Source: an uncultured Bacteroidales bacterium (GTDB lineage Bacteria > Bacteroidota > Bacteroidia > Bacteroidales > VadinHA17). Taken from it: a stretch of DNA of 64,000 nucleotides. Under the pieces are notes generated by a model. That model was not told where the DNA came from. It searched no databases and was given only the letters and a program-made list of their open reading frames with translations. Positions 1,673 through 59,050 of the stretch are shown one piece after another; the first letter of the stretch is position 1, and each line of letters starts with the position of its first letter. Made by a program: the position numbers and the translations under genes. Where the stretch lies: assembly GCA_963823065.1 (NCBI GenBank), contig CAWGJX010000004.1, forward strand, positions 1,280,139-1,344,138. Reading direction: 5' to 3'.

Positions 1673-1884
1673 TTGATTTACTTCACCCTAAATCCTGCTC
1701 ATTAATCTATTCTTTGTACACATCTTTTAAAATCTCCTACATCAGCTGCACATGATGAACTCACCCCCTTCCCCATAGCCTTCAATTTAAGGAGTTGAAT
1801 ATAGTAAAACATGGAGAGAGATTAGTACAAAACAGAACGTATAGTACTGACATATAGCCTGATACATTTACCCTCCTTCAAAAG

Positions 1885-2711
1885 CTAATCTTTATACACA
1901 TCTTTGGCAATTCTGTTTTATAAGCCACGAAGTGGCTTAATATGAATAACCCCTGGCGTCAGCCGGGGTACAGCTAACCCTCTGATCTCAAGCCCTGAAA
2001 GGGCTTAATATAATTCGAATTAATAAAGTAAATGAGTAATTTATTCTTCTCTCGCTACATTAATAGTTTAAAATTTGTTTTATGTCAAGCTATCGTCAAC
2101 ATCTTTATCATATTGTTTTCAGGACAAAGGACAGCCTGTCCACTATCAGACAGAATCATTCTAATGAACTCTATTCTTATATTACGGGGATAATCAGGCA
2201 AAAAAATAGTCACCTTTACCGTATAAATGGAGTTGAAAATCATCTTCATATTCTTACAGATATGAATCCATCGATTGCTCCTATAGATTTTGTGAAGGAC
2301 ATAAAGGTATCTTCCTCAATTTGGATTAAAAAAAACAATTTATTTCCTGCATTTAATGGATGGGCAGTTGGCTATGGTTCTTTTACCTGCTCATATAAGG
2401 ACATAGACAGGCTAATTGAATACATAATGAATCAACAGGAGCATCATCAAAAAATATCATTTGAGGATGAGTATAGAAAACTTCTACTGGAATACGGCAT
2501 AAAGCCAGATGAAAAGTTTTTCCCACAACTTATATATTCAGCTCCTTCAGAGCTGGGAAGTTTTTGGTAGACATCTACCCATGGCTGGCGCCAGGGGTTA
2601 TTCATATTTGGCTCTTTCAGAGCCAGCTGGAATAATAATTGAAGAGTATGTTATCAGGACTCAAAATGACGGAGTAAATTCGAAATTTTAAAAGATGTGT
2701 ATAAAGATTAG
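1885..2711. mobile_element. 827-bp unit with TIRs and a TSD that carries the HUH/Y1 gene
   Basis: CTAATCTTTATACACATCTTT at 1885-1905 is the exact reverse complement of 2691-2711. Identical 8-bp direct repeats TTCAAAAG lie at 1877-1884 and 2712-2719. Confidence 0.6.
2082..2570 (+). CDS. HUH/Y1 tyrosine transposase, REP-associated (RAYT) / IS200-like
   Basis: 162 aa. The HUH motif HLH is at residues 54-56, and the catalytic Tyr context is EYIMNQQEHH. The gene is flanked by inverted copies of CGCCAGGGGTTATTCATATT plus small hairpins. Confidence 0.8.
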   Translation: MSSYRQHLYHIVFRTKDSLSTIRQNHSNELYSYITGIIRQKNSHLYRINGVENHLHILTDMNPSIAPIDFVKDIKVSSSIWIKKNNLFPAFNGWAVGYGSFTCSYKDIDRLIEYIMNQQEHHQKISFEDEYRKLLLEYGIKPDEKFFPQLIYSAPSELGSFW

Positions 2712-3095
2712 TTCAAAAGGAGGGGAAACTTTTTTATGCAATATTTCATTCATTCCCAAAGCTTAAGTTGATGGCTATGGGGAATGGGGTGAGTATGTAA
2801 GTCCAAATGAACAGAACGAAGTGAGCTCGGCGAAGCCAAATTTCCGATCGTGAAAATGCGTCAAAAGATTGGCTCAGGGAGAATGGGTAGGGGTTGAGGT
2901 AAAAGAAAGACTACAAATCCATTAAACTCATGTCAGAGAGTAATAGGGTAACCTCAGTCGATAATGGTCTGATAGGTGGAGCCGAATTAAGTCATGGATT
3001 CCGACAGTAAATAGTTATTTAAAGTTAAAAATTATTAAAATTTATATCGGGATTCAAAAAAAGAACTAAATTTATTTCTTCCAATCAAAGGGGAA

Positions 3096-6868: not shown

Positions 6869-6969
6869 GCATATTATTTCGCGACCATCAATTACATATT
6901 TGTTAACAAATGTTGATATCTGACCTTAAGCTATCACCGTCAGGAAAATAAAATCTCTTATATTTGTTA

Positions 6970-7170
6970 TGTTTTGGTGTTGCAGTGAATTTTATGGCAC
7001 TGCAATGAAAAGGGAATGCGGTTTGAATCCGCAACAGTACCCGCTGCTGTGAAGCCCGGTCCCGCATTGCGCGGGATGATGGTTTTCTGAAATACCTGCC
7101 ACTGTTCCGATGAATTAGAATGGGAAGGCTTCAGAAAACCGGGATAAGTCAGAAGACCTGCCAGATAAAC
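6970..7170 (+). promoter_or_regulatory. Cobalamin (B12) riboswitch
   Basis: Core AAAAGGGAATGCGGTTTGAATCCGCAACAGTACCCGCTGCTGTGAAG, then GCCACTG, then the B12 box AGTCAGAAGACCTGCC at 7147-7162. It lies directly upstream of a TonB-dependent receptor gene. Confidence 0.85.
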
Positions 7171-7248
7171 CTAATATTCAATGCTTTCGGGAAAAAAAGC
7201 GCCGGATCATAACAGATTCCCACGTAAATACCCAGTAAACGCTGAATA

Positions 7249-24297: not shown

Positions 24298-24371
24298 GGT
24301 TCCGTAGCTCAGTTGGATAGAGCAACAGCCTTCTAAGCTGTGGGTCGCGCGTTCGAGCCGCGCCGGAATCA
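24298..24371 (+). tRNA. tRNA-Arg (anticodon TCT)
   Basis: I folded the complete 74-nt cloverleaf by hand: acceptor GGTTCCG/CGGAATC, D arm GCTC/GAGC, anticodon loop CTTCTAA, T arm GCGCG-TTCGAGC-CGCGC. CCA is not encoded. Confidence 0.9.
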
Positions 24372-27090: not shown

Positions 27091-28287
27091 ATGAAAAAGA
27101 TCTTTCTTATTTGTCTAATTATCTCATTTGTATCGTTCCCGAAAGTTCTGGCTCAACAATCAAATGACACTATTGCTTATCTGATTACATGTGGACCCGG
27201 GACAGAAACTTATTCTATTTATGGCCATAGCGCATTAAGAATTGCAATCCCTGCAAAACATTCTGACATAATCTATAACTGGGGAGTGTTCGATTACAAT
27301 ACAAAGAATTTCGCCTGGAAATTTGCAAAGGGCAGATTAGATTACATGCTTGATACAGAGACAACTAAAGGTTTTCTGCAGAGTTATTTTTTTGAACAGA
27401 GATATGTTTATTCACAAAGAATTAATATTGATTCAAAAGAATTACAAAAATTAACAGAACTAATAAATGAAAATCTCAAACCTGAAAACATTAAATACAG
27501 GTATGATTTTTTTTATGATGATTGTTCAACAAGGATAAGGGACCTGCTTGAAAAATCAATAGGGGATAAACTAAAATATCCTCAGCCGGACCCCGGAAGA
27601 GTGCCTACTTTCAGAGAAATGGTTGCCAAATATCAGAATCCATACCCCTGGTTAAAATTCGGAGTGGATCTTATTATGGGTTCCACAAGTGATAAAAAAG
27701 CCCATTTCAGGGATCAGATGTTCCTTCCCATTGATATGAGGATTGGATTATCAAAGACGGTAGTACAAAGGTCTGACAAAATGATTCCTCTTCTTCAGAA
27801 TCCTGAAATATTACTCGATTTCGGAAACCCTCAGGTAAAACATAGGTTTTTAACTTCTCCTCCTTTTGTTTTCACTCTTTTAATAATTGTGATTCTTATC
27901 CTCGCTGCTCAGACAAAAAGCAGAAAGATTATCAGAATAACAGATATTGTCATTTATTCTGTTTTTTCAATCCTTTCAGTGTTGATGATATTTTTTAATT
28001 TTTTCACCGATCACGATCAAATGAAATGGAATCTTAACATTATATGGCTTAATCCATTTATTCTGGTTTGTTTATTAATGCTGATATTAAATAAACCTGG
28101 TGAAATATGGTTCAGGATAGTGTTTTATATTTCAGCAGCATTTCTCGTTATTCACTTTGTTCTTCCCCAGGAATTCAACATAGGATTCTTACTTCTCGAT
28201 ATTATAATATTAATAAGGAGCTCTATGAGATCTGGTTTTGACTGGAATCCGCTTTCGCCCCCTGCCGCTTCGCGGCTGTCCCCCTAA
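27091..28287 (+). CDS. DUF4105 (Lnb N-terminal domain) membrane protein
   Basis: Signal peptide, then CGPGTETYSIYGHSALRI, which is typical of DUF4105, then C-terminal transmembrane helices. The last roughly 10 codons and the stop lie inside a repeat element. Confidence 0.65.
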   Translation: MKKIFLICLIISFVSFPKVLAQQSNDTIAYLITCGPGTETYSIYGHSALRIAIPAKHSDIIYNWGVFDYNTKNFAWKFAKGRLDYMLDTETTKGFLQSYFFEQRYVYSQRINIDSKELQKLTELINENLKPENIKYRYDFFYDDCSTRIRDLLEKSIGDKLKYPQPDPGRVPTFREMVAKYQNPYPWLKFGVDLIMGSTSDKKAHFRDQMFLPIDMRIGLSKTVVQRSDKMIPLLQNPEILLDFGNPQVKHRFLTSPPFVFTLLIIVILILAAQTKSRKIIRITDIVIYSVFSILSVLMIFFNFFTDHDQMKWNLNIIWLNPFILVCLLMLILNKPGEIWFRIVFYISAAFLVIHFVLPQEFNIGFLLLDIIILIRSSMRSGFDWNPLSPPAASRLSP

Positions 28288-28575
28288 AGGCATAGGCGTA
28301 AACTTAAGGAGTTGAATATAATAAAATAGGATAAAAATTAAGCATAAAATAGTATGTAATGTATTGAATATATGTCAGATACATTTCCCCTACTTTTAAA
28401 GGAGGGGAAACCTTTTTATGCAGTATCTCATATATCCCCAAAGCTTAAGTTTACGCCTATGCCCTAAAGGGGGAACAATTCAGTGACATTACTAAATTTC
28501 CTAAGAGGAAGTGAATTTACCCCCCTTTAGGGGGGCAAAAAAAGTTTTTGTGACTTTTGTGCCTGTAGGGCGGTA
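28258..28575. repeat. Family-A GC-hairpin repeat, copy A1, interrupted by the MITE at 28291-28461
   Basis: CCCCCTGCCGCTTCGCGGCTGTCCCCCTAAAGG ... CCCTAAAGGGGGAAC ... CCCCCCTTTAGGGGGG, then a TTTGTGACTTTTGTG arm. Homologous to copies at 43.2, 50.3, 51.3 and 58.9 kb. Confidence 0.75.
28291..28461. mobile_element. 171-bp MITE-like element with 18-bp perfect TIRs and a 9-bp flanking direct repeat
   Basis: CATAGGCGTAAACTTAAG at 28291 is the reverse complement of CTTAAGTTTACGCCTATG ending at 28461. CCCTAAAGG is present at 28282-28290 and 28462-28470. Confidence 0.7.
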
Positions 28576-43224: not shown

Positions 43225-43362
43225 ACCGCAAAGCATGGATCCCCTGCCGCTACGCGGCTGTCCCCTTAAAGGGGGACCAACTCGGTGTATGTGATGAATT
43301 TATTGAAGTACTGAGAATTAGCCCCCCTTTAGGGGGGAAGGGGGGCGCGACCTTACAAGGTT
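43224..43362. repeat. Family-A GC-hairpin repeat, copy A2, with flanking CAAAG/CTTTG-type arms
   Basis: AACCGCAAAG..CCCCTGCCGCTACGCGGCTGTCCCCTTAAAGGGGGAC..GATGAATTTATT..CCCCCCTTTAGGGGGG..ACCTTACAAGGTT. Confidence 0.75.
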
Positions 43363-50270: not shown

Positions 50271-50445
50271 AACCGCAAAGTACGCTAAGAAAGCACACCC
50301 CCTGCCGCTGCGCGGCTGTCCCCCTAAAAGGGGACTAAAACTGTTCTTTAAAGGGAATTTCATTAGGTCATAAAACATAAAGCCCCCCCTTGGGAGGGTT
50401 GGGGGGTGCGACCTTTGTAAAAACCTTTGTGACTTTTGAGGTTAA
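50271..50445. repeat. Family-A GC-hairpin repeat, copy A3, a complete composite with both outer arms
   Basis: AACCGCAAAGTACGCTAAGAAAGCACA + CCCCCTGCCGCTGCGCGGCTGTCCCCCTAAAAGGGGAC ... CCCCCCCTTGGGAGGG..GGGGGGTGCG + ACCTTTGTAAAAACCTTTGTGACTTTTGAGGTT. Confidence 0.75.
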
Positions 50446-58941: not shown

Positions 58942-59050
58942 CCCCCTGCCGCTTCACGGCTGCCCCCCTAAAGGGGGGACTAATTCGGTTTATATGATGA
59001 ATTCATTAATATCCAGAGAATTAACCCTCCTTTAGGGGGGCAGGGGGGCA
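58942..59050. repeat. Family-A GC-hairpin repeat, copy A5
   Basis: CCCCCTGCCGCTTCACGGCTGCCCCCCTAAAGGGGGGAC..GATGAATTCATT..CCCTCCTTTAGGGGGGCAGGGGGG. Confidence 0.75.

Follow-up and report, generated by a model that had tools for sequence, protein, structure and literature searches.

The stretch analysed here, called the window below, comprises 64,000 nucleotides (nt) of an uncultured Bacteroidales bacterium of the VadinHA17 lineage (GenBank assembly GCA_963823065.1, contig CAWGJX010000004.1, positions 1,280,139 to 1,344,138 of the forward strand), and the element in question is an 827-bp segment at its positions 1885-2711 that carries a gene for an HUH/Y1 protein. This segment is very probably a mobile insertion cassette (MIC) of an insertion sequence (IS) of the IS50 subgroup, in which a discrete Y1 unit would travel as a passenger, moved in trans by a transposase of the DDE type. 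An initial annotation, made from the sequence of the window alone, had already proposed that the Y1 module was the passenger of a DDE enzyme not encoded in the window, and this proposal holds up, since the ends of the segment match those of elements encoding an IS4-family transposase and no homologue of that enzyme lies in the window. A DDE transposase with matching element ends was indeed found in other Bacteroidota, in elements of 1.51-1.55 kb. The layout of the segment is as follows:

1885-2711, no strand assigned: putative non-autonomous IS50-like mobile insertion cassette of 827 bp with perfect 21-bp terminal inverted repeats (TIRs)
1885-1905: left TIR, CTAATCTTTATACACATCTTT, 21 bp
2691-2711: right TIR, 21 bp, the exact reverse complement of the left one
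1877-1884 and 2712-2719: left and right copies of the 8-bp duplication TTCAAAAG
1922-2625, plus strand: the cargo, a discrete Y1 unit with a hairpin at either end
2082-2570, plus strand: HUH/Y1 gene of 162 amino acids (aa), with the HUH motif NHLHIL and the Y motif YIMNQQEHH

That the two TIRs are exact reverse complements, as first reported, was confirmed by reading and by shuffling, since the CTAATCTTTATACACATCTTT pair gave no match at three or fewer mismatches in 100 shuffles of the window. The 8-bp direct repeats had also been placed correctly, and both copies directly abut the TIRs. Between the TIRs and the Y1 unit lie spacers of 16 bp and 65 bp. A tblastn search of the 64-kb window with the IS50-like transposase found no homologue of this protein, and the segment is therefore taken as non-autonomous and moved in trans. 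No further IS50-like ends, at up to five mismatches, were found in the window beyond those reported here, and no Rfam match from a scan of the whole window overlaps the repeats.

The family of the 21-bp ends was recovered by an exact-pattern scan with CTAWTCTTTRTACACATCTTT over one genome per bacterial species, which returned at least 107 stretches (loci from other genomes are designated here by L-codes, such as L013, L025, or L108). Among the matches listed, all titled records come from Bacteroidota (Bacteroidales, Flavobacteriales, Prolixibacteraceae, Rikenellaceae, Prevotella, and Marinifilum breve), and many matches lie at contig ends, as is typical for multi-copy repeats. When elements were defined by pairing inward-facing copies of the 21-bp end, they fell into three size classes: miniature inverted-repeat transposable elements (MITEs) of 226-618 bp without an open reading frame (ORF), elements of 757-999 bp with one small ORF, and eight elements of 1511-1553 bp with one ORF of 463-485 aa, which is interrupted in L108. 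The long ORF scores 321.7 bits against the NCBIfam model NF033590 "IS4 family transposase" (cut-off 160) and aligns over residues 27-466 with the structures of the Tn5 transposase in a sequence search of the PDB (E = 1.2e-25), with D97, D188, and E326 of Tn5 and the YREK residues all aligned and conserved. The relationship of the 485-aa transposase to that of Tn5 is a distant one (93 bits over about 440 aligned residues), and no Pfam match was obtained for this protein, which was identified by NCBIfam and the PDB sequence search. The autonomous relatives with a DDE/YREK transposase and no frameshift are L019, L042, L043, L050, L067, L094, and L101, and the last 21 bp of the autonomous elements, that is, the TIR itself, are the codons for KDVYKD and the stop of the transposase.

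The IS50 subgroup was delimited by De Palmenaer et al. in 2008 (PMC2266710, Table 1) by a size of 1350-1550 bp, ends of the form CW------Y---CA-A--W-, the YREK signature, and direct repeats of 8-9 bp. All specified end positions (C1, T2, T9, C13, A14, A16, and T19) are present in CTAATCTTTATACACATCTTT, the direct repeats measure 8 bp in the window and have their mode at 9 bp in the family, and the autonomous copies, at 1511-1553 bp, are in keeping with the size of the subgroup, the window element having only 827 bp because the transposase gene is missing. From these traits, CTAATCTTTATACACATCTTT is recognised as the end of an IS4-family, IS50-subgroup (Tn5-like) IS widespread in Bacteroidota. 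It is also alike at 14 of 19 positions to what we take to be the mosaic end of Tn5. Contamination by Nextera/Tn5 adapters was considered and rejected: the pattern differs at 5 of 19 positions, the matches bound elements with ORFs, and duplications are present.

The same ends bear on a different reading of the segment, in which the 827-bp unit would be an autonomous transposon and the Y1 protein its transposase, using the TIRs and making the duplications. Such a reading has a precedent in the TIR-associated Y1 proteins, or TIRYTs (PMC6006769), and it accords with a Y1 gene that is intact, under purifying selection, and alone among the ORFs between the TIRs in having a family match. We nevertheless consider it extremely improbable, because the 21-bp ends bound elements with a DDE transposase and encode the C-terminus of that very enzyme, because they also bound cassettes with GIY-YIG or DUF559 genes and MITEs without any cargo, because deletion derivatives devoid of most of the Y1 gene have still transposed, and because many Y1 units lack such ends. 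The ends themselves fit the IS50 consensus and not the GGGG[AT][CG]A[CG] repeats of TIRYTs (PMC6006769).

For the reading as an IS50-like cassette, the duplication has to be judged together with its target. The target of 1885-2711 is a palindrome, in which only the three central bases of the 8 bp tell a direct repeat from an inverted one; the TTCAAAAG duplication persuades mainly via the duplication statistics of the whole family. These were taken from 44 non-redundant paired ends, with shuffled pairings of left and right ends as the control. Perfect direct repeats of 7-10 bp flank 14 of the 44 (eight of them being exactly 9 bp long) against about 1.2 of 44 after shuffling, and four more of the 44 match at 8 of 9 positions. 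The TIR and the duplication, which the initial annotation had allowed might turn out to be unique to this locus, are thus both family properties. In the window, the perfect TIRs and the perfect duplication indicate that the whole cassette would have arrived recently.

The target preference was derived from 138 distinct outward flanks of the 21-bp ends, in which positions -16 to -9 are 50-72% C, a C-run is present in 79% of cases, and positions -3 to -1 are mostly purines. Since both sides show this bias of C-run and purines, the elements target palindromes built as CCCCTCC-(loop)-GGAGGGG, in which the bases that become duplicated are essentially those of the loop between the C-rich and the G-rich stem. 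As DNA, the target reconstructed for the window forms a hairpin of -9.6 kcal/mol (z = -5.2), and the empty site at 28.3 kb, described below, folds as one of -9.6 kcal/mol as well (z = -3.85); the enzyme may read such a target either as a symmetric duplex or as an extruded hairpin. The idea that the inverted repeat is longer and takes in the C-rich flanks was rejected, since the bases between C-run and TIR are direct in at least 14 pairs and vary among loci.

In the window, this target belongs to a palindromic element that we call MITE-B, which occurs twice:

1774-2779, no strand assigned: MITE-B, the "outer palindrome", with ends CATAGCC...GGCTATG and arms at 1774-1876 and 2720-2779
28291-28461, no strand assigned: uninterrupted copy of MITE-B, 171 bp, with the empty site TTTTAAAG at 28394-28401, in a hairpin
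28282-28290 and 28462-28470: left and right copies of MITE-B's own 9-bp duplication CCCTAAAGG, in the CCCCCTAAAGGGGG hairpin of a third repeat family

The uninterrupted copy with its empty-looking site had been noticed at the outset, and a BLAST search against the window supports its interpretation: 1774-1884 aligns with 28291-28401 at 76% identity and 2716-2779 with 28398-28461 at 86%, and the two alignments meet at the single TTTTAAAG site, 28387-28407 reading CCCCTAC-TTTTAAAG-GAGGGG. MITE-B is itself a genuine duplication-forming MITE, since it is flanked by the 9-bp direct repeat CCCTAAAGG. Homologues of MITE-B were found at eight loci of other genomes, with the same centre interrupted by different IS50-like inserts; the interrupted homologues include L024, L034, L048, L070, L074, L149, and L108, the insert of the latter encoding a transposase.

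With no more than two copies in the window, insertion into one and precise loss from the other are formally alike, and the 28.3-kb copy could in principle be a deletion derivative of one composite ancestral element, left when the insert was precisely excised or when the 8-bp repeats recombined. This is barely credible given that the two MITE-B copies are just 76-86% identical, while the TIRs and the duplication of the cassette are perfect, that MITE-B homologues elsewhere hold different IS50-like inserts at the same centre (MITEs, the transposase-encoding copy, and others), and that the same cassette is found outside MITE-B in other genomes. The initial annotation had contemplated the case of all outer copies carrying the segment without a target duplication; what was found is an uninterrupted copy in the window and copies with different inserts in other genomes.

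The cassette reading, in which MITE-B received a complete cassette, is supported by the relatives of the cassette. A different Bacteroidales metagenome-assembled genome (MAG) holds, at L025, an 827-bp element that is an end-to-end homologue of 1885-2711, with a cargo 92% identical and the same order of parts (repeat, spacer, hairpin module, gene, hairpin module, spacer, repeat). Its surroundings are different from those in the window, and its direct repeat matches at 8 of 9 positions. The right-hand spacer of the window cassette is common to L110, L138, L142, L143, L146, and L149, and the cassette at L142 has a perfect 9-bp duplication. The MAG of L025 also contains two 425-bp elements, L015 and L073, which are cassettes with one and the same internal deletion. 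Their mutual identity is 98.1%, they occupy separate loci whose flanks are unrelated, and their direct repeats match at 9 of 9 and 10 of 11 positions. Their lineage has transposed after losing most of the Y1 gene, and the Y1 protein is therefore not required in cis. With IS ends, duplications, and no cognate transposase of its own, the cassette lineage corresponds to what is defined as a MIC.

The cargo is not always a Y1 gene. Sister cassettes, bounded by the same 21-bp ends, contain instead a GIY-YIG gene (101 aa; L103:3028-3784, 757 bp, with perfect repeats) or a DUF559 gene (131 aa; L083:6266-7025, 760 bp), so that all cargo types seen in cassettes with these ends are small nucleases (Y1 HUH, GIY-YIG, and DUF559). 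Two versions of 2.56 kb (L059:1737-4297 and L100:1762-4336) were observed with a GIY-YIG gene, a nested IS110-family element encoding a 432-aa DEDD transposase, and a right-hand hairpin module of the Y1 type.

The association of the Y1 clade with these ends was also quantified. At up to five mismatches, the 21-bp repeat is recognisable at only about one quarter of 48 metagenomic Y1 loci. In a more telling test, a 15-nt core of the repeat was scored in the 350 nt beside each Y1 unit, with at least 11 of 15 matches required, and it was found in the correct orientation at 21 of 35 loci on the left side (wrong orientation, 2 of 35) and at 16 of 33 on the right side (wrong orientation, 3 of 33), several decayed left cores lying 38-47 nt from the Y1 unit. 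By this measure, about half of this Y1 clade lies in intact or decayed cassettes. Distant Y1 homologues, with about 40% identity to the window protein, were also seen a few hundred bases inside an IS50-like end (L018:1334-2275 and L074:6277-6934), and other Y1 lineages may thus also be cassette cargo.

The sharp, hairpin-bounded ends of the Y1 unit, its unrelated flanks, and its lack of a duplication of its own are what a segment mobilised by a Y1 enzyme is expected to look like, and the several types of left spacer among lineages suggest more than one capture in the history of the family. Both points would suit an assembly in place, with a small IS50-like MITE already present in MITE-B and the Y1 unit inserted into it later by a single-strand mechanism. 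We hold this to be very unlikely for the window: cassettes with the same right-hand, and partly the same left-hand, spacers were found in other genomes and in different contexts (L025, L110, L138, L142, L143, and L149), so that the combination of spacers and Y1 unit predates this insertion; the perfect TIRs and duplication point to a recent arrival of the whole unit; and no empty MITE with the spacers of the window cassette was found among the loci compared.

Several observations count against the reading of 1885-2711 as a cassette moved whole by an IS50-like transposase, or complicate it. The duplication in the window has 8 bp, set against the family mode of 9 bp (within the published range of 8-9 bp), and about half of the paired ends elsewhere are without a clean duplication, which has to be explained by copies having rearranged with one another or by a homogenised palindrome. 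A transposase-encoding IS50-like copy in the centre of a MITE-B homologue (L108:1398-2950) has flanks that are perfectly inverted, CTTTTGAAG and CTTCAAAAG, and not direct, which suggests recombination between copies in oppositely oriented targets or, again, homogenisation of the palindrome. As to the route of capture, at least three unrelated types of spacer separate the left repeat from the Y1 unit, and either capture took place more than once or modules have been exchanged. Finally, sequence comparison establishes the identity of the ends, the autonomous relatives, the length of the duplication, the target bias, the repeated movement of the cassette lineage, and the discreteness and structural conservation of its cargo, whereas transposition in trans is something that we infer.

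The cassette and MITE-B appear to be enclosed in turn by remnants of another IS50-like element, which we call MITE-A:

1707-1727, plus strand: left TIR of the putative MITE-A, CTATTCTTTGTACACATCTTT, with two mismatches to the 21-bp repeat
1759-1773, plus strand: inner stem ACTCACCCCCTTCCC of the putative MITE-A, paired with 2780-2794 and next to the point where MITE-B is inserted
2780-2872, plus strand: right arm of the putative MITE-A, with the stem GGGAATGGGGTGAGT at 2780-2794, the conserved TGAGCTCGGCGAAGCCAAATTTCCGATCG, and the degenerate right repeat AAAATGCGTCAAAAGATTGG at 2853-2872

The region of 1707-1727 shares a 30-nt match with the inner side of the right end of the cassette, and the stems form a 33-nt inverted repeat that is 91% complementary and corresponds to the ACTCACCCCC and GGGGGTGAGT arms of homologous MITEs. 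IS50-like MITEs to which the stems and 2786-2872 can be aligned are found in L024, L026, L045, and L063. Less favourable to this interpretation are the left half, where nothing but the repeat and the ACTCACCCCC stem matches the relatives, and the duplication, none being recognisable around MITE-A. On balance, 1707-2872 is probably an old, partly deleted IS50-like MITE whose central palindrome received MITE-B. The nesting described initially is real, and its three levels would become at least four layers, with MITE-A enclosing MITE-B, MITE-B the cassette, and the cassette the Y1 unit.

By analogy with the biochemistry of Tn5 and IS50, the most recent of these insertions can be pictured as follows. 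A DDE transposase of about 480 aa, encoded elsewhere, would bind both 21-bp ends as a dimer, excise the cassette by cut and paste, and integrate it at a target cut with a stagger of about 9 bp, which is 8 bp in this case. The target would here have been the central hairpin of the 171-bp MITE-B, previously inserted in the central palindrome of MITE-A. The Y1 protein would ride along as a passenger and would not be the source of either the TIRs or the duplication.

The protein encoded by this passenger scores 75.4 bits against the Pfam family Y1_Tnp (PF01797; cut-off 23), so that the initial description of a 162-aa HUH/Y1 protein accompanied by inverted segments and four hairpins stands. The gene has lost the usual TAA stop, which is CAA at 2526-2528, and is thereby extended by 14 codons into hairpin H3 of the right module (162 aa against the 148 aa of its homologues). 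Its dN/dS of 0.07-0.15 against seven homologues indicates that the gene is under purifying selection, and its HUH motif NHLHIL and Y motif YI[KM]NQQEHH are conserved in the homologues, where the latter reads YIKNQQEHH; two homologues, L112 and L136, were seen to carry internal stop codons. The score against the NCBI IS200 equivalog NF033573 is 50.6 bits, below the cut-off of 55. The Y motif of the window protein, Y---Q--HH, is also different from the Y-I-x-x-N-P type of class-2 REP-associated tyrosine transposases (RAYTs; REP, repetitive extragenic palindrome). Quentin et al. (2018, PMC6006769) described TnpA-Y1 subclass 1.2 as having the Y---Q--HH motif, occurring in Bacteroidetes and Cyanobacteria in low copy, and generally lacking terminal secondary structures. 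The window has one copy of the gene. Because of its motif, the 148-aa length typical of its relatives, and their distribution in Bacteroidetes, the window protein is assigned to this subclass and is no canonical RAYT; the label "RAYT-like" given to it at first is fair as an analogy and wrong as a statement of membership.

The boundaries of the Y1 unit were obtained from a BLAST comparison of the cassette with all fetched loci, in which about 45 loci are homologous from 1916-1924 up to 2623-2625 and have unrelated flanks beyond. These limits coincide with hairpins H1 (AAGCCACGAAGTGGCTT) and H4 (TGGCTCTTTCAGAGCCA), the outermost parts of two modules:

1922-2006, plus strand: left three-hairpin module, with H1 at 1922-1938, the AATATGAATAACC tract, a middle hairpin at 1950-1968, and H2 at 1990-2006
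2539-2625, plus strand: right three-hairpin module, with H3 at 2539-2555, a middle hairpin at 2578-2597, the tract GGTTATTCATATT, and H4 at 2609-2625

Each module has about 90 nt and an invariant AATATGAATAACC tract, and the left and right modules are mutually inverted, the 26-nt segments 1939-1964 and 2583-2608 being 96% complementary. As DNA, the left module folds at -22.1 kcal/mol (z = -5.85) and the right one at -20.1 kcal/mol (z = -5.14), and a consensus fold of 30 distinct left modules has compensatory changes at 8 of its 20 predicted pairs. By analogy with TnpA of IS200/IS605 and with TnpA-REP, these modules are presumably the single-stranded DNA substrates of the Y1 protein. Their conservation appears to be a new observation for subclass 1.2. 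No conserved motif was found flanking the Y1 unit beyond a loosely T-rich left flank. Besides the repeat at 1707-1727 and its mate at 2853-2872, the initial annotation had missed the middle hairpin of each module, the 14-codon extension of the gene, and the caveat of the palindromic target.

No further REP-like hairpins of the Y1 type or copies of the modules were found in the 64-kb window. In other genomes, extra module copies cluster beside some Y1 genes (L118, L145, L158, and L171), and modules without a nearby Y1 gene were observed in L050 (5380-5460 and 7000-7070) and in L013 (2910-2975), with IS50-like elements sitting in their middle hairpin. The structure of L050 before this insertion would read H3, middle hairpin, H2, a palindromic doublet resembling a REPIN and a circular permutation of the order that flanks the genes. 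IS50-like elements inserted in the middle hairpin (CCCCCGG...CCGGGGG) of Y1 modules were seen in L013, L026, L050, and L147, so that the Y1 and the IS50-like systems often meet.

Several known systems resemble parts of this arrangement. MICs were first described for IS231, also of the IS4 family, an example being MIC231 of the Bacillus cereus group. The alternative offered by the initial annotation, an undescribed composite with a RAYT packaged inside a MITE, amounts to such a cassette and, the category being known, is not undescribed. The window element shares with MIC231 the IS-type TIRs around one or more passenger genes, the missing cognate transposase, the duplication, the presumed mobilisation in trans, and a parent of the IS4 family. 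It differs in its IS50-subgroup ends and its host phylum, Bacteroidota, in a passenger that is itself a transposase-like HUH/Y1 gene with hairpin ends of its own (GIY-YIG or DUF559 genes in the sister cassettes), and in a family target strongly biased to hairpin loops. With IS50 and Tn5 themselves, the family has in common a transposase that aligns over nearly its full length and keeps the DDE and YREK residues, the consensus of the ends, the 8-9-bp duplications, and a size of about 1.5 kb. Unlike them, it occurs in Bacteroidota and not in Proteobacteria, prefers C-rich/G-rich palindromes, and has the stop codon of its transposase at the very tip of the element, the window copy having no transposase at all.

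As regards the passenger, the protein resembles subclass 1.2 (PMC6006769) in its Y---Q--HH motif, its typical length of 148 aa, its occurrence in Bacteroidetes and Cyanobacteria, and its closeness to IS200 TnpA under the equivalog cut-off, whereas the conserved inverted three-hairpin modules at about 45 loci and the location of about half of the loci within IS50-like ends set the present clade apart from that description. A single HUH/Y1 gene between inverted palindromic modules, with some clustered and a few gene-less module copies, recalls RAYTs and their REPs and REPINs (TnpA-REP, class 2), unlike which the Y motif is not of class 2 and the 64-kb window contains no additional module copy. 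In contrast to IS200/IS605, the modules are inverted and not in the same orientation, and no fixed tetra- or pentanucleotide flank was seen. Insertion into extragenic palindromes, resulting in nested repeats, is also a property of REP-targeting ISs such as IS1397, ISKpn1, and IS110-family elements (Tobes and Pareja 2006, PMC1525189); here, on the contrary, the element is of the IS4/IS50 type, the duplicated segment approximates the loop between C-rich and G-rich stems, and other MITEs and the middle hairpin of Y1 modules are among its targets. In our search of the literature, whose coverage was incomplete, no report was found of a Y1 or RAYT gene as cargo of a DDE-type cassette (MIC), nor of GIY-YIG or DUF559 cargo in MITEs.

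Y1 genes of subclass 1.2 and RAYT-like genes are, in the usual description, non-mobile single-copy genes whose function is not known. The locus and its relatives provide a concrete travel route for such a gene, as the cargo of a Tn5-like cassette, and the three-hairpin modules, as likely substrates, make the biochemistry of the Y1 protein directly testable. The IS50-like family of Bacteroidota is unusually specific in preferring hairpin loops, and this accounts for the "Russian-doll" stacks of MITEs at which metagenome assemblies break. The established principles of transposition are left unchanged, the nesting being explicable by known mechanisms, and the interest is that of the specialist: a "domesticated" HUH gene transported by a Tn5-like vehicle, an IS50 lineage specific to hairpin loops, and likely substrates newly defined for subclass 1.2. 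It is conceivable, even if we would think it unlikely, that the recurrent nuclease cargo is no accident and acts on the C-rich target hairpins or on its own modules, and thus provides a second, transposase-independent means of spread or retention, for example by break-induced copying into empty hairpin sites, or that the cassette is the main vehicle by which the "non-IS" Y1 genes of subclass 1.2 spread among Bacteroidota.

A few further features of the window deserve mention. The third repeat family, into which the uninterrupted MITE-B is inserted, has members of about 105-120 bp and four copies in the window (28258-28545, about 43240-43345, 50298-50405, and 58942-59045); its members start with CCCCCTGCCGCTTCGCGGCTG, have the CCCCCTAAAGGGGG hairpin next, and close with a CCCCCCTTTAGGGGGG hairpin. 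MITE-B interrupts the copy at 28.3 kb, and the copies near 43240, 50298, and 58942 are intact. The only Rfam matches in the window, a cobalamin riboswitch at 6958-7179 (88.5 bits) and a tRNA at 24298-24371, are unrelated to the repeats. Just before the outermost repeat lies a terminator-like hairpin (1642-1668), and upstream of the repeats there are two consecutive ORFs on the same strand (350-940, 196 aa, and 990-1622, 210 aa), which we take to be parts of a putative YidC-like membrane insertase; in that case the gene may be split or frameshifted, or an error may have entered the sequence.

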